A DNA stretch of 64,000 bases from Microgenomates group bacterium GW2011_GWF2_46_18 (GCA_001002415.1 LCMB01000005.1:13621-77620); one strand, 5' to 3'. Shown: positions 8,831 through 51,397, counted from the first letter of the stretch. The notes: a model not told the origin generated them from the sequence alone. Program-made: numbers and translations.

Positions 8831-8944
8831 ACGTATAGTATAGCGACAAGCAGAACAATTTTCAGCGCGGAACCATCCATCTGGGTAGCCAGATGACGAT
8901 GTGAGCACTGCAAAATGTGATGTTTGGCGCTAAAATACCTCAAC

Positions 8945-11525: not shown

Positions 11526-11993
11526 TTATACTCCCAACCATCCCAAAACTATCTTGTCGATTGCTTCCGCCTCGCTTAATCCCCGGCTTCGCAAATACCC
11601 AATTTGTTCTGAATCCACTGGTCCTACACTGGCCGCGTGGCTAGCCTTGACATTATTTGCTTCGATCTCCAACTCTGGCTCTGCCATCACTTGGGACGTT
11701 GAAGAAAGCATTAACCCTCGCATCTCCAGAAAATTCTCTGTCTCTTGCGCCTTCTTTGCGATTTTAATTACCCCTCTGATTTTTACTCTCGCATTTCTTC
11801 CCACCACCGTTTTTACCGTCACCCTTCCTCTTGTCTCTCCCACTCGGTGGTCAGCCACCACCAAAAGCTCATACTCCCCCTCTCCTCTGGCATCAATAAT
11901 CCCCTCCCACTCCTTCTCCTCCCCCCTTTTCTCAAACAGAATCACTACCTTCCACTTCCCTGGTTTACTATATTTTTTAACTATTTTTCGCAT
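11526..11993 (-). CDS. sufD: truncated SufD-like Fe-S assembly protein (C-terminal domain only)
   Basis: VKASHAASVGPVDSEQIGYLRSRGLSEAEA matches the SufB/SufD C-terminal region. Only 155 aa. Confidence 0.7.
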   Translation of the reverse strand: MRKIVKKYSKPGKWKVVILFEKRGEEKEWEGIIDARGEGEYELLVVADHRVGETRGRVTVKTVVGRNARVKIRGVIKIAKKAQETENFLEMRGLMLSSTSQVMAEPELEIEANNVKASHAASVGPVDSEQIGYLRSRGLSEAEAIDKIVLGWLGV

Positions 11994-12013
11994 ACAAAGT
12001 CCTCAAAAATGCA

Positions 12014-12128
12014 GGGTGCAGACGTGTTTCACAACTGAAAAAGTTTACGCAGCGCGACTGGCGCGAGTTCGAGGCGGCTCCGCACCAGCGGAGAACGCCG
12101 TCTTTTTCAAGTGAAATACGTCGAACCC
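12014..12128. repeat. structured intergenic repeat, copy 1 (long imperfect hairpin with two internal hairpins)
   Basis: GGGTGCAGACGTGTTTCACAACTGAAAAAG...CTTTTTCAAGTGAAATACGTCGAACCC. Second copy at 27622-27741. Lies between sufB and the sufD-like gene. Confidence 0.8.
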
Positions 12129-12143
12129 CAGCAGGTATGTTCT

Positions 12144-13520
12144 TCATCCTACACTTCCAATCATTTCCAATTTAACTAATCTGTTTAGCTCCACCGCATA
12201 CTCCAAAGGCAACTCCGCCACAATCGGCTCCAAAAATCCCCTAATTATCAAAGTCTGCGCTTCTTCCTCGGTCAACCCACGGCTCATTAAATATTTTATC
12301 TGTTCCTCCCCCACTCGAGAGACATAAGCCTCATGCTCAATTTGAGAGCTCCCTGTCAAAATCTGATTATTGGGATACGTATCACTCCGACTTAAGGGGT
12401 CCATAATCAAAGCGTCACACGTAACCTTACTCCGAGATCCTAGAGCGGCCGGACCCATCTTTACTTGTCCCCGATAACTAGCTCTTCCCCCCTTTTGACT
12501 AATCGATTTACTAATTATTCGCGAAGTTGTTCGGGGAGCCAGGTGTATCATCTTCGCTCCCGTGTCTTGGTCTTGACCATTGCCTGCGACCGCCATCGAC
12601 AACATCTCTCCATGTGCTCCTTCTCCCTGCAAAATACAACTCGGATATTTCATTGTTACCCTCGATCCCAAATTACAGTCCACCCACTCCATCGTGGCGT
12701 CTTTTGCGACCGTTGCCCGCTTAGTCACCAAGTTGTAAACCGTCTTATACCAATTTTGCACCGTCGTATACCGAACTTTTGCTCGCTCCTTCACAATCAC
12801 TTCCACTACCGCCGCATGTAAACTAGCACTGCTATACGCTGGTGCACTACATCCTTCCACATAATGGACCCTCGCCCCCTCCTCAACCACAATCAATGTT
12901 CTCTCAAACTGTCCGGCTTTCTCCGCATTAATCCGAAAATACGCTTGGAGCGGCAAATCGACTTGGATTCCTGCTGGTACATATACAAAACTCCCGCCGC
13001 TCCACACCGCTGTATTTAACGCCGCCAGCTTATTGTCTCCGTATGGCACAATTTTGCCAAAATATTTCTTGACTATTTCTGGGTATTGCGTAAGTCCTTC
13101 GTCCATCGACAAAAACACTACTCCTTGTTTCGCCAAACTTGCTTTAAGACTTCCATAAATTTTTTCGCTATCAAACTGAGCGGTTACTCCTGCTAAAAAG
13201 GCCTTTTCTGCTTCTGGTACTCCGATTGCCGTAAACACTCGGCGCACCGAATCTGGTACTTCCTTCCAACTTTTGTATGGCAAGTCCACTGGCCGCAAAT
13301 AATAATAGATTTCCCCCCACTTAATTTGTGACAAATCCGCTCCCCAGGATGGTATCGGCATGGCCTCAAACTGTTCTAGTGCCACAAGCCTCATTTTAAG
13401 CATCCATGCCGGCTCTCCCTTTTTCCGTGAAATCTCTCTCACCAGGTTCTCACTTAATCCTCTTTGGCTCTTATAGCGATAGCTCCCCGTACCACTGTTC
13501 TCATTCAATATCTGTTTCAT
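12144..13520 (-). CDS. sufB: Fe-S cluster assembly protein SufB
   Basis: 458 aa; conserved SufB blocks (GGSFVYVP, HYVEGCSAP, SRGLTEEEA). Confidence 0.9.
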   Translation of the reverse strand: MKQILNENSGTGSYRYKSQRGLSENLVREISRKKGEPAWMLKMRLVALEQFEAMPIPSWGADLSQIKWGEIYYYLRPVDLPYKSWKEVPDSVRRVFTAIGVPEAEKAFLAGVTAQFDSEKIYGSLKASLAKQGVVFLSMDEGLTQYPEIVKKYFGKIVPYGDNKLAALNTAVWSGGSFVYVPAGIQVDLPLQAYFRINAEKAGQFERTLIVVEEGARVHYVEGCSAPAYSSASLHAAVVEVIVKERAKVRYTTVQNWYKTVYNLVTKRATVAKDATMEWVDCNLGSRVTMKYPSCILQGEGAHGEMLSMAVAGNGQDQDTGAKMIHLAPRTTSRIISKSISQKGGRASYRGQVKMGPAALGSRSKVTCDALIMDPLSRSDTYPNNQILTGSSQIEHEAYVSRVGEEQIKYLMSRGLTEEEAQTLIIRGFLEPIVAELPLEYAVELNRLVKLEMIGSVG

Positions 13521-18408: not shown

Positions 18409-18493
18409 GGAGGGGTCACATAGTGGTCTAGTGTAGCGGTTTACTAAACCGCCGTAGCGCAAGTTACCGAGGGTTCGAATCCCTCCCCCTCCG
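18409..18493 (+). tRNA. tRNA-Ser-like (type II, long variable arm); anticodon reads ACT in my manual fold
   Basis: Acceptor GGAGGGG/CCCCTCC, D stem ACAT/GTGT, anticodon stem GCGGT/ACCGC with loop TTACTAA. 16-nt variable arm, T arm GAGGG-TTCGAAT-CCCTC, discriminator G. No encoded CCA. Confidence 0.8.
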
Positions 18494-18518
18494 CTTCCCT
18501 GATATAATCTTCTCCACA

Positions 18519-18601
18519 GGAGGTGTCGCCTAGTGGTATGGCACGAGTTCGCTAAACTCGCACCCGCAAGGGTGTCGTGGGTTCGATTCCCACCGCCTCC
18601 G
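18519..18601 (+). tRNA. tRNA-Ser (anticodon GCT)
   Basis: Acceptor GGAGGTG/CGCCTCC, anticodon stem CGAGT/ACTCG with loop TCGCTAA. Long variable arm, T arm GTGGG-TTCGATT-CCCAC, discriminator G. Confidence 0.9.
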
Positions 18602-18685
18602 CAGTTTATAAAAAAATTATAAAATCCACCAGACGAAATTATAATGATTCTATAAAATAAGACTGTGAGAAAAAGAACCTAATAT

Positions 18686-21579: not shown

Positions 21580-21985
21580 GGGGACGTCTTGCTTTGACGT
21601 ATACCAGCTCTTTAACATCTGCATACCGACTTTGACTAAGGAAGTCGTAAAACAGAGTCAAAAAACAACTGTCAACACTTTGAAGACAGCAGCTAAGAAC
21701 GTTGTCGCCTTTCTCTTCGGAGATGGCGTCGGCACTTACGCTCCTAGTTTCGCTTTAGCTTAACTGGCATTCACGTCCTACTCGCTTATGGGGAAGATGT
21801 GGGTGGAAACACACATAAGCCGTAAGTTGGATCCGGTCAATCCAACCCATATCAACGACCACCCTCGTGTTACTCTTGGTCTGATAATTACCTAAGTAGC
21901 TAGAGGTAAAAACCAAAATTTATCTATGTATGTAGATGGTGTTACAGGCGGCATGCGGACGAGGGCTCACTGCCCTCCGTCTCCA
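21580..21985 (+). ncRNA. ssrA: tmRNA (SsrA)
   Basis: 5' GGGGACGTCTTGCTTTGACG pairs with the 3' CGTCTCC-A, giving a G3:U70 pair. T-arm-like GAGGG-CTCACTG-CCCTC. Internal tag frame ends ...GTYAPSFALA-TAA (stop at 21761-21763). smpB lies adjacent. Confidence 0.85.
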
Positions 21986-21988
21986 CTC

Positions 21989-22420
21989 TTAATTCTTCAT
22001 GGCCTTGGCCATTTCTCGATCAACATCTCTTTTCTTGATATCTTCTCGTTTCTCCCATTCTTTCTTCCCCTTCCCAATCCCTATCTCACACTTCACCCAC
22101 CTCCCCTGGAAAAACAAGCGGAGTGGAACCAGGGTCAGTGGTTTGCCTTCAATCTGTTGCTGAATTTTCAAAATCTCTTTAGCTTTCATTAGGAGTTTGC
22201 GCGATCGTTTGGCATCATATTCTTTGCCCGAATAATGACTATATTGGGGTAAATCCGCCCCCACCAAATATAATTCCCCATTGATTAGTTTCACGTATCC
22301 ATCCCGCAAACTTCCTCTCCCCCCCCGCAAACTCTTGACTTCCGCCCCCGTCAACACCACCCCCGCCACGTACGTGTCAGTGATCGCATACTCCCTCTTA
22401 GCCAGTTTATTAATAATCAT
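21989..22420 (-). CDS. smpB: SsrA-binding protein SmpB
   Basis: AKREYAITDTYVAGVVLTGAEVKSLR...GELYLVGADLPQY...RSRKLLMKAKE, SmpB motifs. Confidence 0.9.
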   Translation of the reverse strand: MIINKLAKREYAITDTYVAGVVLTGAEVKSLRGGRGSLRDGYVKLINGELYLVGADLPQYSHYSGKEYDAKRSRKLLMKAKEILKIQQQIEGKPLTLVPLRLFFQGRWVKCEIGIGKGKKEWEKREDIKKRDVDREMAKAMKN

Positions 22421-22464
22421 ACTGATATTCTACCCCAGGTCGACAAAATATTACCTTCCAGCTT

Positions 22465-27298: not shown

Positions 27299-27604
27299 AT
27301 GAACAATCAAGCTGTCGATTACCCCAAATTAAATCAGGCTCTCGGTAACAATCTGGGTGACAAAAACTTGGGCGGAATTATTAGCGCCGTTCTCCCCACC
27401 CTCCTTTCTCTCGCCGGCCTCATCCTTTTTGGGATGTTAATCTTTGGTGGTTTTACCATGCTCGCCGGTGCCGCCAACAAAGAATCTCAGGAAAAAGGTA
27501 AAAAAATGGTTACCTCAGCTCTCATCGGCTTCTTTGTCATCTTCCTCGCCTACTGGCTCGCCCAAATTCTCCAGGTCATTTTTAAAATTAATATTGTTGG
27601 GTGA
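27299..27604 (+). CDS. T4SS-type pilin paralog
   Basis: 101 aa: LSLAGLILFGMLIFGGFTMLAGAANKESQEKGKKMVTSALIGFFVIFLAYWLAQIL. Same TM-loop-TM plan as the 34-36.5 kb array. Confidence 0.7.
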   Translation: MNNQAVDYPKLNQALGNNLGDKNLGGIISAVLPTLLSLAGLILFGMLIFGGFTMLAGAANKESQEKGKKMVTSALIGFFVIFLAYWLAQILQVIFKINIVG

Positions 27605-27621
27605 AAAATCTAACCCGAATC

Positions 27622-27741
27622 GGGTGCAGACGTATTTCACAACTGAAAAAGTTTACACAGCGCCGCCCCGTCGGCGCGAGTTAGAGGCGGCTCACCAGCA
27701 GGTGAGAACGCCGTCTTTTTCAAGTGAAATACGTCGAACCC
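27622..27741. repeat. structured intergenic repeat, copy 2
   Basis: Same outer arms as 12014-12128. The inner hairpins differ by compensatory changes (CTCACC/GGTGAG versus CTCCGC/GCGGAG). Lies between the convergent pilin and uppS genes. Confidence 0.8.
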
Positions 27742-33998: not shown

Positions 33999-34322
33999 AT
34001 GGCATGTACTACTGTTAATGGCCAATTAGATCTTGGTTCTTGTCTCATTTTCCAAGACTCTACCGCCGCTCAAGAATACACTGGCGCCGGCTCCCTCATT
34101 AATACTCTCCTTCCCAATATTTATCTTGCCGCCGGCCTCATTATCTTTTTTATGATCATCATGGGTGGTTTTATGATCATTAGTAGCGCTAGTGATCCTC
34201 ACAAAACCGAAGACGGCAAAAAAATTATCACCTCTGCTATAATGGGTCTTGCGATAGTCATCTGTTCCTACTGGATCATCCAATTGATTCAGGTTGTTAC
34301 CGGACTATCCATTCTAAATTAA
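33999..34322 (+). CDS. T4SS-type pilin paralog P1
   Basis: Start at MACTTVNG. Core: AAGLIIFFMIIMGGFMIISSASDPHKTEDGKKIITSAIMGLAIVICSYWIIQLI. TATACT at 33987-33992 lies 6 nt before the ATG. Confidence 0.7.
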   Translation: MACTTVNGQLDLGSCLIFQDSTAAQEYTGAGSLINTLLPNIYLAAGLIIFFMIIMGGFMIISSASDPHKTEDGKKIITSAIMGLAIVICSYWIIQLIQVVTGLSILN

Positions 34323-34326
34323 CCCT

Positions 34327-34668
34327 ATGAACAACTCGCTTCTTGGCGAACCCATCAACAACCCCCTCACCAACTATGGTAATGTTGACGTTGGTCTCCC
34401 CAAATTTATTAGTAATATTTTGACCATTGTCTTTGTCGGAGCCGGGCTTTATGCCTTTTTTAACCTCATGTTTGCCGGGTTTACCTATATCACCGCCGCC
34501 GGTGATCAGAAGAAAATTGAAGCTGCCGTCTATTCCATCAACATGTCCCTTATTGGTCTCATTGTTATGGTCGCTGCTGCTGCCGTAACCGGCATTGTTT
34601 CATACATTCTTTTTGGGAGTGCCACTGCCATCCTTTCTCCCAAAATTATTGGACCAGGGAGCTTATAA
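34327..34668 (+). CDS. T4SS-type pilin paralog P2
   Basis: FVGAGLYAFFNLMFAGFTYITAAGDQKKIEAAVYSINMSLIGLIVMVAAAAV. Confidence 0.7.
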   Translation: MNNSLLGEPINNPLTNYGNVDVGLPKFISNILTIVFVGAGLYAFFNLMFAGFTYITAAGDQKKIEAAVYSINMSLIGLIVMVAAAAVTGIVSYILFGSATAILSPKIIGPGSL

Positions 34669-34669
34669 T

Positions 34670-35020
34670 ATGACCGATCTTAACTTTGGCCCCATAGTTG
34701 CTCCCGGCGGCTACCAACCCGGGTCTGACCTGGCTAGCTCTACCGGCGCAGTCGAAAGACTCATCAGTAATACTCTGATTGTTCTAACCGCCGTATCAGG
34801 CATTGCTTTTATTCTCTACTTTGTCCTGGGTGGTTTGAGCTGGATCACCGCTGGTGGTGACAAAGGCAAGGTCGATAAAGCCAAAAGCATGATGACCAAT
34901 GGTGCTATTGGCCTCATTATCATTGTTGTTTCCTATGCCATTGTCTGGATTGTCGGCACTGCTCTTGGCGTCGATATCCTCGAACCAGGCAAGCTTATTC
35001 AAGAAACTATTACTTTTTAA
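34670..35020 (+). CDS. T4SS-type pilin paralog P3
   Basis: Start at MTDLNFGP, 1 nt after the P2 stop. Core: FILYFVLGGLSWITAGGDKGKVDKAKSMMTNGAIGLIIIVVSYAIVWIV. Confidence 0.75.
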   Translation: MTDLNFGPIVAPGGYQPGSDLASSTGAVERLISNTLIVLTAVSGIAFILYFVLGGLSWITAGGDKGKVDKAKSMMTNGAIGLIIIVVSYAIVWIVGTALGVDILEPGKLIQETITF

Positions 35021-35026
35021 CCAACT

Positions 35027-35407
35027 ATGTCTAAACTAACTCCTCTCCTCATTCCTATTTCCTATTTCCTATTTCCTCTTGCCGCCAAGGCTGCAATCAC
35101 CAATCCCGCTGTTCCCGGTGGTGACAGCCCCACTAGCGCCCCCACCCAATTTGCCACTACTATGGGCGTTCTCTGGCAAACCCTGATTATTGTTGGTGGG
35201 CTCGCCTTCCTGCTTTACTTCCTCATGGGCGGACTCAAGTGGATCATGGCTGGAGGTGACAAAGGCAAGCTCGAAGAAGCCAAGGGTGCTATTACCAATG
35301 GCCTAATCGGCCTCGCTGTCTTGGCCGCCAGCTACGTCATTATCAAATTCCTTCAAGCCGCTCTCGGCCTTGATTTACTCAATATTCTCTGGCCCACCGC
35401 CGGATAA
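35027..35407 (+). CDS. T4SS-type pilin paralog P4
   Basis: Signal MSKLTPLLIPISYFLFPLAAKA. Core: FLLYFLMGGLKWIMAGGDKGKLEEAKGAITNGLIGLAVLAASYVIIKFL. Confidence 0.8.
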   Translation: MSKLTPLLIPISYFLFPLAAKAAITNPAVPGGDSPTSAPTQFATTMGVLWQTLIIVGGLAFLLYFLMGGLKWIMAGGDKGKLEEAKGAITNGLIGLAVLAASYVIIKFLQAALGLDLLNILWPTAG

Positions 35408-35412
35408 ATCCT

Positions 35413-35745
35413 ATGTCATTAACCCTTATCCAAACTGTTCAAGCCGCCGAAAGTTTCCGCATCAACATCGATGACCAAGTCAAGTCCCGCGTCGCCATTA
35501 ACGACACTTTGGGAGTCTTTGTCCAAAAATCTTTCTCCGCCGTTATTCTGGTCGCTGGCTTGGCCACCTTTATGTATCTCGTTTTGGGTGGGGTGCAATG
35601 GATCATGGCTGGCGGTGACAAAGGCAAACTCGAAGAAGCCAGAAATCGTATCACCAATGGTTTAATTGGTCTTGCCATCGTGGCCTCGGCTTGGGCCATT
35701 TACCAGCTCGTTGATTACTTCTTCGGTATTGGCATAACAAATTAA
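35413..35745 (+). CDS. T4SS-type pilin paralog P5
   Basis: Core: FMYLVLGGVQWIMAGGDKGKLEEARNRITNGLIGLAIVASAWAIYQLV. Confidence 0.8.
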   Translation: MSLTLIQTVQAAESFRINIDDQVKSRVAINDTLGVFVQKSFSAVILVAGLATFMYLVLGGVQWIMAGGDKGKLEEARNRITNGLIGLAIVASAWAIYQLVDYFFGIGITN

Positions 35746-35754
35746 TTAAATAAT

Positions 35755-35790
35755 TGATATACTTAAACCAAGTACTATCAACTAAGTACT
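35755..35790 (+). promoter_or_regulatory. internal promoter (TGaTATACT) plus paired AAGTACT repeats ahead of pilin P6
   Basis: TGATATACT at 35755-35763. AAGTACT at 35770-35776 and 35784-35790 (14-nt period). AGGAGG lies 7 nt before ATG 35809. This is the only sizeable gap in the array. Confidence 0.45.
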
Positions 35791-35808
35791 GTAACAGGAG
35801 GAAAACCT

Positions 35809-36162
35809 ATGTTCGATCTCATTACCAAAGTTAGCGCCGCCGCTCCCGGAGCCCCCGAGCTCTCCATTGGCAAACCCGAAGGTGTCGCTATTACCAATAT
35901 CGGAACTCTCATTAAAGGTGCTACCCAAGGTGCCCTCCTCATCTCCGCCCTCCTCGTTTTTGCTTTCCTCATTATGGGTGGCATTCAGTGGATTGCTAGT
36001 GGTGGAGACAAAGGCAAAACTCAAGAAGCTCGTGACCGCATTACCGCCGCTTTGGTCGGTCTAGCTGTCGTTGCTTCCGCTTGGGCGATCATGTTGATCA
36101 TCCAGTACTTCTTTGGAATCAGCATCTTGAACGAAAACATCACTCCTCCCAAAGCCTACTAA
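35809..36162 (+). CDS. T4SS-type pilin paralog P6
   Basis: Core: LVFAFLIMGGIQWIASGGDKGKTQEARDRITAALVGLAVVASAWAIMLII. The only pilin with a strong SD sequence. Confidence 0.8.
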   Translation: MFDLITKVSAAAPGAPELSIGKPEGVAITNIGTLIKGATQGALLISALLVFAFLIMGGIQWIASGGDKGKTQEARDRITAALVGLAVVASAWAIMLIIQYFFGISILNENITPPKAY

Positions 36163-49558: not shown

Positions 49559-51397
49559 ATGAACTTGCCCTTCCCTTTTGTTGGCAAAAAACACAGTCAC
49601 GCCAAGGACGCCGACCCTACCGGGACCAGCTCTCCCGTCTCTGCTCCTGTCCGCATCCTCTCCCAGGCTACTAGCCATGTCAAAGACATTATTGCCCCCG
49701 AAGCCATTGAAGTGGACTGGAGTGATATCAAAATTAACGATACCTACTACCGCACCCTCTTTGTCGCTGGTTATCCTCGCTTTGTCAATGCCAACTGGCT
49801 CTCCCCCCTTATCAATTTTAATCACAGCTTGACCGTTTCCATGTTCATTTATCCCGTCGATGGCAAAGGTGTGATCGAAGACCTCCGTCGCAAAATCGCT
49901 GAAATGGAAGCCGAGCTCCAAGGCGATATCCAGCGCGGTCGCATCGTCAATATCGATACTCAAGTCAAATTAGAAGACGCCCGCAGTCTCCAGGAACAGC
50001 TCGCCAAAGGGGCCGAACGTTTTTTCCAGTTTGGTCTGTATATTACCATTCGCGACGATAAAAAAGAGGTACTTAATCAAGTCACCAATCATGTTAAATC
50101 AACTTTAGGGGCTCTCTTAATTGTCGCCAAAACTGCCACCCTCCAAATCGAAGATGGTTTCAAAACTACTCTCCCGACAGGTCTCGACAAACTCAAAATT
50201 AACCGCAACATGGATACCACCAGCTTAGCTACCACCTTCCCCTTCACTTCCTCCGAATTAACCGCCAACGAAGGTTTGATGTATGGGATCAACGAACACA
50301 ATGATAGTCTCGTTGTCTTCGATCGCTTCTCCCTCGAAAACGCCAACATGGTTGTCTTTGCCAAATCCGGCTCCGGCAAAAGTTACATGGTCAAGCTCGA
50401 GATCCTTCGCTCACTTCTTTTCGAAACCGAAGTGATTGTCATCGACCCCGAAGACGAATACCGGAAACTTACCACCGCTCTTGAGGGCACCTACATCGAC
50501 TTTAGTTTTAACTCTCCCGCCCGTCTCAACCCCTTTGATCTCCCCCAAACCAAAGAACCCGACGAAAACGAGCTCGCCATGAAAATTATTTCTCTTCACT
50601 CCCTTTTCAAAATTATGTTGGGAGACGTTAGTGCCAGCGAAGAAGCCCTCCTTGACCGCGCTCTTGTTATGACTTACCAGATGAAAGGAATCACCCGCGA
50701 TCCCGCCACCCACAGCCAGGAACCCCCTCTTATGGAAGATCTCTACAAAGCCCTGATTGGGATGGAAGAAGCCGTGGCCCGTGGCCTGGCCGACCGCCTC
50801 GAAAAATATGTTAAAGGAAGTTTCCAGGGTATCTTCTCTCAAAAAAGTAACGTCAACCTTGGTAGTCAACTAACCGTTTTTGGGATCAAAAATCTCCAAG
50901 ACGAGATGCGCCCCACCGCCATTTTTATCATTCTTGATTATATCTGGACCAAAATTAAGCGCGATCTCAAAAAGCGTCTCCTGGTAGTAGATGAGGCCTG
51001 GTACCTTATGAAATCCGAAGACTCCGCCACCTTCCTTTATGGAATTGCCAAACGCGCCCGTAAATATTTCTTAGGGTTAACCACTATTACTCAGGATGTC
51101 GAAGATTTCCTGGGGAGCGATCACGGCAAAGCTATTGTCAACAATGCTAGTCTCCAGGTTTTAATGAAACAAAGTACCAGCGCTATCGACAAACTGGCCC
51201 AAGTCTTTTTCCTTTCTCAAGGAGAGCGCCATTTTCTCTTAACCGCCGAAATTGGGGAAGCCCTCTTTTTTGCCGGTCAAAACCACGTGGCTATGCGCGT
51301 TGTTGCCTCTCCCGAGGAACACCAGTTGATTACCACCGACCCCCAAGAACTAACCAAAGTTCAGGCGGCAACTCCCCCGCCCCCCGTTAAACATTGA
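49559..51397 (+). CDS. virB4: VirB4/TraE/PrgJ-type T4SS ATPase
   Basis: Walker A VFAKSGSGKSYMVK, Walker B RLLVVDEAWYLM. N-terminal YYRTLFVAGYPRFVNANWLSPLI is typical of Gram-positive VirB4 homologues. Confidence 0.85.
   Translation: MNLPFPFVGKKHSHAKDADPTGTSSPVSAPVRILSQATSHVKDIIAPEAIEVDWSDIKINDTYYRTLFVAGYPRFVNANWLSPLINFNHSLTVSMFIYPVDGKGVIEDLRRKIAEMEAELQGDIQRGRIVNIDTQVKLEDARSLQEQLAKGAERFFQFGLYITIRDDKKEVLNQVTNHVKSTLGALLIVAKTATLQIEDGFKTTLPTGLDKLKINRNMDTTSLATTFPFTSSELTANEGLMYGINEHNDSLVVFDRFSLENANMVVFAKSGSGKSYMVKLEILRSLLFETEVIVIDPEDEYRKLTTALEGTYIDFSFNSPARLNPFDLPQTKEPDENELAMKIISLHSLFKIMLGDVSASEEALLDRALVMTYQMKGITRDPATHSQEPPLMEDLYKALIGMEEAVARGLADRLEKYVKGSFQGIFSQKSNVNLGSQLTVFGIKNLQDEMRPTAIFIILDYIWTKIKRDLKKRLLVVDEAWYLMKSEDSATFLYGIAKRARKYFLGLTTITQDVEDFLGSDHGKAIVNNASLQVLMKQSTSAIDKLAQVFFLSQGERHFLLTAEIGEALFFAGQNHVAMRVVASPEEHQLITTDPQELTKVQAATPPPPVKH

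Follow-up and report, generated by a model that had tools for sequence, protein, structure and literature searches.

We analysed a window of 64,000 nucleotides (64 kb) from a Microgenomates (CPR) genome obtained from groundwater; proteins encoded in this window have identical counterparts on GCA_001776285.1 and in many aquifer assemblies. Bacteria of this kind are ultra-small, and the genomes of CPR/Patescibacteria are about 1 Mb in size, tightly packed and thought to be poor in repeats. The window contains an operon, sufC-sufB-sufD΄-sufS-nifU, in which sufB (12144..13520, minus strand; 458 aa) precedes, in the suf sense, a short SufD-like gene (sufD΄; 11526..11993, minus strand; 155 aa) that corresponds to the C-terminal half of the SufBD core. 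A short SufD of this kind (~155 aa, C-terminal half of the SufBD core) is found throughout this Microgenomates group (120 homologues), and most of the group have an ATGA overlap that couples it to sufB. Between sufB and sufD΄ in the window lies a conserved core of 115 nt (copy 1; 12014–12128, plus strand; covariance-model score, 134.5 bits), whose plus sense is antisense to both genes and to the operon around it. A second conserved core of 120 nt (copy 2; 27622–27741, plus strand; 138.6 bits) occupies the gap between two convergent genes, a T4SS-type pilin gene on the plus strand and uppS on the minus strand. The two copies have sharp borders in common (GGGTGCAGACG...CGTCGAACCC), and patterns representing their arms yielded exactly two matches in the window, compared with 0 in 100 shuffles; no third copy was detected in the window by either of two covariance models run with filters off. 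The original prediction, that an element of ~115 nt with pairing outer arms occurs twice here, is thus borne out, with both copies on the plus strand. When the surroundings of both copies were scanned for intrinsic terminators, the only hit was a small terminator-like hairpin followed by a T-run (ACCCGATTCGGGT TAGATTTTTC; 27613..27625, minus strand), which reuses the last 4 nt of copy 2 and may be the terminator of uppS.

Both copies share one Y-shaped fold, composed of P1a (4 bp), a 3 × 2 internal loop, P1b (12 bp), a bulge, P2 (8 bp) and a three-way junction bearing a short, variable GC hairpin (hairpin A) and a two-part hairpin with an A(C/G)CA loop (hairpin B). In copy 1 (plus strand), P1a pairs 12014–17 with 12125–28, P1b pairs 12021–32 with 12111–22 and P2 pairs 12036–43 with 12102–09, and hairpins A and B lie at 12052–64 and 12073–99, respectively. 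The corresponding helices of copy 2 (plus strand) pair 27622–25 with 27738–41, 27629–40 with 27724–35 and 27644–51 with 27715–22, with hairpin A at 27660–77 and hairpin B at 27686–27712. Differences between the two copies are almost confined to the internal hairpins, and the changes are compensatory. As had been proposed, hairpin B exhibits two compensatory pair swaps (CTCCGC-ACCA-GCGGAG at 12078–12093 versus CTCACC-AGCA-GGTGAG at 27691–27706), hairpin A is built from different sequences in the two copies (CGCG-ACTGG-CGCG in copy 1 and GCGCCG-CCCCGT-CGGCGC in copy 2), and the single difference within the arms, G12026 versus A27634, gives a G:U and an A:U pair, respectively, in the plus sense only. 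A sliding scan of 120-nt segments placed the two copies ahead of all other folds of the 64 kb in stability, the tRNAs and the tmRNA included, with energies of –56.7 and –54.9 kcal/mol compared with a mean of –18.5 kcal/mol; their fold z-scores were –6.1 and –8.4. Both strands of the element fold strongly.

At the gathering threshold, Rfam 15 reported only the tmRNA and two tRNAs in the window, and ARAGORN reported only tRNA-Ser at 18409 and 18519, with no cloverleaf at the element. Searches of Rfam at E ≤ 10 with copy 1, copy 2, a distant member of the family and a member of a second hairpin family (both described below) returned nothing or chance eukaryotic matches far below threshold; the initial impression that the element belongs to no known RNA family therefore stands. 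As separate observations, the two tRNA-Ser genes are adjacent (18409–18602, plus strand; ACT and GCT anticodons according to ARAGORN), and the tmRNA (21580–21988, plus strand) adjoins smpB (21992–22426, minus strand) on opposite strands.

Further copies, for which a search had been proposed, do exist: 15 further distinct sequences were recovered from other Microgenomates contigs using pattern scans and a covariance model. One pattern scan covered species-representative genomes and one covered JGI metagenomes, strain variants were added from protein look-ups, and the covariance model, built from the near-identical set, was run on loci fetched via SufD΄ homologues. The near-identical set comprises 11 distinct sequences, including the two window copies, at four sites: sufB/sufD΄ (the window, L011, L013 and L030), pilin/uppS (the window, L028 and L031), secE/nusG (L029) and downstream of rpoD (L032). 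More distant members occupy the suf site (L033, L035 and L038), the divergent tsaD/HIT spacer (L023 and L020) and the region upstream of smpB (L020). This family, hereafter family 1, is accordingly present at six unrelated sites (suf, uppS/pilin, secE/nusG, rpoD, tsaD/HIT and smpB), which are very short intergenic spacers where the element lies about 14–19 nt from stop codons. Five of the seven matches in the genome scan (Epilithonimonas, Flavobacterium, Chitinophaga and Bacillales) were rejected as chance AT-rich matches. The pattern scan of viral contigs yielded 0 matches, blastn found no match among phages and plasmids, and blastn with a word size of 11 found none in 5,426 E. coli genomes. 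Literature searches on repeats or structured intergenic RNAs of CPR/Patescibacteria yielded no description of such a repeat family. One contig, L013 (CAYGFS010000009.1), is titled 'uncultured Pseudomonadales bacterium'; because it carries a Microgenomates-type suf operon, a short SufD and the element, this label looks like a binning or taxonomy error.

The additional sequences allowed us to examine covariation, as had been suggested. Among the 11 close sequences, 97.3% of the cells in paired columns can pair and 11 pairs are doubly changed, with part of P2 invariant because the search patterns imposed it. Among 17 sequences including the distant members, 95.9% of the cells pair and double changes occur in 36 of the 40 pairs; this alignment was fitted to the covariance model, which somewhat favours structure. 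None of 500 shuffles reached the observed values for the 17 sequences, and controls in which the partner strand was slid paired at 36–49%. In the distant members, the sequences of P1 and P2 are wholly different and the pairing is kept. If only the P1/P2 arms covaried, co-evolution of terminal inverted repeats could account for it, but this explanation does not extend to the covariation inside hairpins A and B. Covariation is strong in every helix, the internal hairpins included, and so upholds the earlier proposal that selection acts on structure.

Several unpaired positions are also invariant in all members, namely C..A before hairpin A, GAG after hairpin A, A..GG before hairpin B, the CA(C/G)CAG loop region and the bulges. 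These junction and loop nucleotides, for which the junction strands read (U)UACGCAG, CGAGNNNNA and GN, persist across members that are only ~60% identical. We found no consistent partner for a kissing (loop–loop) interaction when hairpin A was compared with hairpin B. The plus sense, on which the model is built, folds better in 13 of 15 members, usually by 3–9 kcal/mol, and the structure cells contain 23 G:U compared with 6 A.C (an A.C cell being a G:U on the opposite strand), although these cells are not independent events. The sense preference originally deduced from one G:U pair thus holds across the family.

These features could indicate a functional plus-strand RNA (a small RNA, a cis-acting 3΄- or 5΄-UTR element or a ribozyme-like junction) whose copies spread secondarily. 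All helices covary, the junction and loop nucleotides are invariant, G:U pairs are favoured in the plus sense, the two window copies are the most stable folds of the window, and conservation is far above that of the saturated synonymous sites described below. In addition, a gene of matching direction directly precedes the plus sense at the pilin, secE and L032 sites, and at tsaD the plus sense occupies the 5΄ region. However, the element has no Rfam relative, and its distribution and orientation, described below, weigh against such an RNA.

At the suf site, the element is an insertion relative to an ancestral junction at which sufB and sufD overlapped as ATGA. The uninserted junction, where a single ATGA contains both the sufB stop and the sufD΄ start and leaves no spacer, is found in L020, L023, L026, L034 and L036, and the same junction holds the element in the window, L011, L013, L030, L033, L035 and L038. 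The element-bearing genomes have 150–232 nt added between the retained ATGA and a new Shine-Dalgarno sequence with its ATG. In the window, the whole insert of ~150 nt comprises the core of ~115 nt and loosely paired outer flanks. The left flank (11994..12013, plus strand) is missing in uninserted relatives, is poorly conserved and bears the new Shine-Dalgarno sequence (TCCTCA on the plus strand, GAGGA in the suf sense); the right flank (12129..12143, plus strand) lies between the core and the sufB stop codon. The two flanks pair weakly (CATAC/GTATG).

Empty sites are present among relatives at tsaD/HIT and smpB as well as at suf. The tsaD/HIT spacer measures 18 nt when empty (L035 and L027) and about 115–175 nt when filled. 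The 38-nt spacer upstream of smpB (22427..22464, minus strand) is empty in the window, and L020 has a divergent family 1 member there; the window spacer contains TTTTGTCGACC, which resembles the joined ends of the L020 member and is either a footprint or a palindromic target. Family 1 is absent from many close relatives, and most relatives do without it at the same junctions. In L032, GAGCGACA and GAGCGAAA border the copy as a possible 8-bp direct repeat (7/8 identical) with an estimated chance probability of ~0.02 when sites and offsets are allowed for. L032 is the sole possible case of a target-site duplication; none was convincing at the suf, uppS and secE sites, and the suf site, where ATG(A) is repeated, is uninformative in this respect because the repeat is functionally required. 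The left flanks had no common motif across the sites compared, and no conserved flank accompanies the element.

The inserts at the suf site have a common property in the opposite sense. In the window, an ORF of 56 codons (11977..12147, minus strand) starts from an ATG that overlaps the sufB stop (ATGA), spans the whole insert and ends 16 nt inside sufD΄. An ORF that begins at an ATG overlapping the sufB stop and spans the whole insert in the suf sense is present in 8/8 suf-site insertions (seven of family 1 and one of family 2, the second hairpin family), and its end falls –2 to +16 nt from the sufD΄ ATG, in four cases again as an ATGA overlap. The other two frames of these inserts carry 1–4 stops. 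According to shuffling, the chance of the frame staying open is 0.02–0.16 per sequence, and the joint chance is ~1e-6 if about five independent lineages are assumed. At the two other co-directional sites, secE/nusG and smpB, the bridging ORF is absent. At the base of the hairpin in the suf-sense RNA, AUGAAG (the sufB stop) pairs with CUUUGU just before the sufD΄ AUG.

We considered whether this ORF is a small protein-coding gene (56 aa; 11977–12147, minus strand) that was duplicated elsewhere. Its presence in all eight suf-site inserts and its annotation by gene callers in several assemblies would be consistent with such a gene. However, the bridging peptides are unrelated between distant members and between families, copy 2 has a TGA in the corresponding frame, hairpin A differs by 5 nt between the copies, the substitutions are base-pair swaps rather than codon-wise changes, and the other sites have no bridging ORF. 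A search of a set of 5.8 billion proteins with concatenated element translations as the query gave 82 word candidates, of which 0 scored. A coding origin is therefore extremely improbable and was rejected, being effectively refuted by the unrelated peptides, the base-pair-wise substitutions and the empty protein search. Because the peptides are unrelated between distant members, what is kept is the openness of the frame and not a protein, and the ORF in all eight insertions suggests that translational coupling is rescued. We infer that the insert passes on the coupling once provided by the ATGA overlap, and that this is the condition for surviving between overlapping essential genes.

Public gene calls include hypothetical proteins of 38–79 aa that are mere translations of the hairpin elements (L017:9891-10007, L033:5641-5811, L035:9765-10004, L038:1367-1537 and L020:148-270). 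Other peculiarities of this operon were observed in passing. In L035 (9749-9845), two occurrences of the last ~20 nt of sufB (…GGGAGTGTGGGATGA), separated by about 75 nt, precede the element, which suggests a further small insertion or duplication at the junction. SufB of L020, L021 and L022 reaches 851 aa (e.g. L020:7449-10004) owing to an intein that contains a LAGLIDADG domain (Pfam); this intein is a further selfish insertion in the suf operon.

Selection on the suf-sense RNA, as shown by the bridging ORF, also bears on a second possibility, that the element is a host-selected mRNA hairpin acting in either sense as a 3΄-end stabilizer or terminator, an RNase III site or a device that couples or decouples cistrons. 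The element always fills spacers beside stop codons, at the distance of about 14–19 nt noted above, both of its strands fold strongly, and there is a precedent in the Correia and ERIC elements, for which effects through RNase III and RNase E are described (PMC10969869). A generic hairpin, however, needs neither invariant unpaired bases, nor a fixed branched shape, nor a fixed orientation on the DNA strand; in addition, most copies are not followed by a U-tract after the stem, and the same junctions lack the element in most relatives. We consider this explanation unlikely, slightly more so than that of a functional plus-strand RNA.

We compared the similarity of the elements with that of their hosts. 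Four-fold degenerate sites of sufB are saturated among the compared genomes (identity, 0.22–0.39), and the SufB proteins are 74–85% identical, whereas the window, L011 and L013 carry elements that are 0.86–0.92 identical. L013 and L033 have the closest SufB proteins (83% at the amino acid level), yet their cores are merely 0.63 identical. A flank motif, TTCGC(A/G)AG, is common to L013, L033 and L030, and the variants of hairpin A are distributed incongruently with the flanks. Judged from these sequence comparisons, the resemblance among elements does not follow the relationships of their hosts.

At the sufB/sufD΄ junction, the genome most closely related to that of the window (L017/L018; SufD΄ 85% identical) carries a different hairpin, of 106 nt. 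This hairpin represents family 2, whose core also occurs at the sufB/sufD junction in L017/L018/L019; a member in the window lies in the divergent tsaD/HIT spacer (8838..8932, plus strand; core, ~8857-8917). The 62-nt core, AATTTTCAGCGCGGA(A/G)CCATCCATCTGGG(T/A)AGCCAGATGACGATGTGAGCACTGCAAAAT, is identical at the suf junction of L017 (L017:9895-10000), in the tsaD/HIT spacer of the window (8838-8932) and in the tsaD/HIT spacer of L017 (L017:13090-13190), and its outer stems vary from site to site. At least two hairpin families thus share a small set of sites, and it appears that cores have been replaced inside older flanks. Alignment of families 1 and 2 was only suggestive of homology, and we make no such claim. 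The tsaD/HIT spacer of L033 (L033:9161-9367; the stretch contains an N run) holds another palindrome (CTCACTCTTTT...AAAAGAGTGAG) that matches neither family, which hints at more hairpin families in these genomes.

The orientation of the element relative to genes is mixed. Its plus sense is antisense at suf and smpB and with respect to uppS and rpoD, and co-directional after the pilin gene, after secE and before tsaD. Relative to the DNA strand, its orientation is uniform. At 14/14 family 1 loci, representing six independent sites, the plus sense lies on the C-rich strand (GC skew, –0.16 to –0.35), despite which the element itself has G ≥ C; for 6/6 independent sites, the two-sided probability of this rule is ~0.03. 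The plus strand of the window has a GC skew of –0.21 to –0.37 across all 64 kb and a negative AT skew, and related contigs display the same skew (0.16–0.35). Because real (Pfam-supported) genes occupy both strands of the window, the skew is independent of gene direction and therefore probably linked to replication. Leading strands are usually G-rich, and the direction of replication was deduced here from skew.

A promoter scan found no sigma-70-like promoter adjoining either copy. The uniform strand orientation and the lack of a promoter speak against the element being a free-standing RNA gene and favour a strand-specific step acting on the DNA, which could be insertion or survival. For a functional plus-strand RNA, the missing promoter-like site and conserved flank are compounded by its antisense position within the operons at suf and smpB, with no co-oriented gene upstream, by an orientation that tracks strand skew and not transcription, by the replacement of the element by another family at the same site and by the many close relatives without it. 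We thus regard such an RNA as unlikely, although it is the least so of the accounts that compete with a mobile repeat.

The strand rule would also be consistent with a non-mobile site, acting as single-stranded DNA or as a cruciform, for a replication, recombination or nucleoid protein, analogous to the folded attC sites of integrons or to single-strand initiation sites. The skew-related orientation is strict at 6/6 independent sites in any gene direction, structure is conserved while stem sequences vary, and G.T is tolerated on one strand only. Against such a site stand the patchy presence and absence among close relatives, its replacement by an unrelated hairpin family, and the absence of an attC R/L box consensus and of an identified partner protein. 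In our analysis, a fixed site of this kind seems improbable.

On balance, we lean modestly towards the view that the element represents an undescribed family of small palindromic non-coding repeats in Microgenomates (CPR), similar to MITE, ERIC and RPE elements. Of the three alternatives offered by the original prediction (a small structured RNA, a REP/MITE-like element or a protein-binding cruciform), the REP/MITE-like one is favoured because the element is an insertion, occurs at six sites in either orientation relative to genes, has no promoter or conserved flank and does not track its hosts, and because a second family reuses its sites; a free-standing small RNA gene is not supported. The element is probably mobile, and we infer movement from these comparisons. 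Its arms of ~30 nt, GGGTGCAGACGTGTTTCACAACTGAAAAAG and CTTTTTCAAGTGAAATACGTCGAACCC, form imperfect terminal inverted repeats, and with copies at six unrelated sites and both filled and empty sites among relatives it has some of the characteristics of a MITE. It had been stated in advance that transposase-associated copies with target-site duplications would mark the element as merely a MITE. The gene tables of some 25 related loci, and related sequence amounting to ~500 kb, revealed no transposase, RAYT or other candidate mobilizing gene, and the duplication in L032 is the only possible one.

Several observations weigh against a mobile palindromic family. In addition to the missing transposase or RAYT and the single possible duplication, there are just 2 copies in 64 kb, and no movement was caught between closely related strains. 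The orthologous suf and uppS copies are intact in genomes whose synonymous sites are saturated, which implies selection or repeated overwriting and not the decay of junk. An ordinary DDE transposase that binds terminal inverted repeats needs neither conserved unpaired junction bases nor internal hairpins, strict orientation by GC skew is untypical of DDE-type MITEs, and the P1/P2 covariation has the alternative explanation given above.

Among known systems, ERIC elements (imperfect palindromes of ~127 bp) resemble the element in size, in their non-coding nature, in their short transcribed intergenic sites used in either orientation, in their low-to-moderate copy number and in the persistence of copies at orthologous sites. 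ERIC transcripts form stable stem-loops able to alter mRNA fate (PMC10969869). In contrast to ERIC, with which it has no sequence similarity, the element occurs in a CPR phylum and has a branched three-way-junction core, invariant junction bases and a strict GC-skew orientation. RPEs (~150 bp) are likewise palindromic inserts of a reduced genome that survive where translation is required, and they insert in-frame into genes (PMC10969869), whereas the element lies between overlapping genes with a separate bridging ORF and no fusion, its peptide is not conserved and its other copies are untranslated. Classical MITEs such as Correia, RUP and QMITE share with the element imperfect terminal inverted repeats of ~30 nt, a lack of transposase coding capacity, a strongly folding transcript and intergenic positions often just 3΄ of ORFs. 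Known MITEs use AT-rich intergenic sites, give stable stem-loop transcripts and have duplications that fade with time (PMC10969869). Unlike them, the element has neither an identified parent IS or transposase nor a consistent target-site duplication. The covariation of the internal hairpins and the conserved asymmetries of the arms suggest that a folded strand is recognized rather than duplex terminal repeats.

Recognition of a folded strand is familiar from other systems. REPIN/REP-RAYT and IS200/IS605 elements are handled as single-stranded DNA by HUH enzymes, and IS200/IS605 elements have an orientation bias relative to the replication strand. Like REPINs and IS200/IS605-derived PATEs, the element is a structure-defined hairpin with few fixed unpaired bases and covarying stems, and, as expected for the IS200/IS605 type, it keeps to the same strand. 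However, it has no GTAG 5΄ of the arms, arms that are not themselves palindromic and no REP doublet, and no RAYT or TnpA was seen near it. It is one global hairpin without separate left and right subterminal hairpins and without a fixed left-flank motif, and its folded strand is presumably the leading-strand template under the usual skew rule, opposite to the polarity of IS608. Integron attC sites are also folded single-strand sites (60–140 nt) with structure conserved over sequence and strand selectivity, and chromosomal integron arrays have an orientation bias relative to replication. In contrast, the element adjoins housekeeping genes (sufB, uppS, secE, rpoD, tsaD and smpB) and not cassettes, no integrase was seen, and the R''/R' boxes (RYYYAAC/GTTRRRY) are absent on either strand of copies 1 and 2. 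The core of the hammerhead or of small self-cleaving ribozymes (e.g. CUGANGA...GAAA) was not found at the junction, and Rfam gave no ribozyme match. By eye, the element could be matched neither to attC boxes nor to a hammerhead core, a Tn3-like end or a k-turn.

If the element is a mobile repeat, an enzyme acting in trans and recognizing the folded strand or its ends would copy it to further sites. The orientation rule would then reflect a replication-linked step at the DNA level, such as integration into DNA while it is single-stranded, or the loss of copies whose strong hairpin falls on the lagging-strand template. Newer variants would overwrite resident copies, and the host would tolerate only insertions that repair gene expression. 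At the suf junction, the hairpin base may draw the sufB stop and the sufD΄ start together while the ORF carries ribosomes across, so that ATGA coupling is kept. The family is peculiar in its branched core with conserved unpaired bases, its skew-tied orientation and its apparent overwriting of resident copies. More tentatively, and with considerable doubt, we suggest that the three-way-junction core is a new recognition or active structure, either of a strand-specific class mobilized as single-stranded DNA or of a new RNA or ribozyme on a mobile scaffold. A class mobilized as single-stranded DNA would home into and overwrite resident hairpins in a replication-oriented manner. If the conserved junction were indeed an RNA or single-stranded-DNA active site, it would constitute a new functional class.

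This conserved, structurally constrained and probably mobile family separates essential genes that would otherwise overlap. It offers a handle on how streamlined genomes tolerate selfish DNA, through a bridging ORF that would restore translational coupling. Its strict orientation within an unusually strong GC skew provides a testable link between hairpin DNA and replication. The elements are also an annotation hazard, as gene callers make hypothetical proteins of 38–79 aa from them, and they may be useful as strain-typing or lineage markers. Two further features of the window were noted: a tandem array of diverged small T4SS-pilin-like genes (34130-36017 and 27299-27604; direct repeat families D1, D2 and D5) and a VirB4/TraG-like ATPase at 49559-51397.
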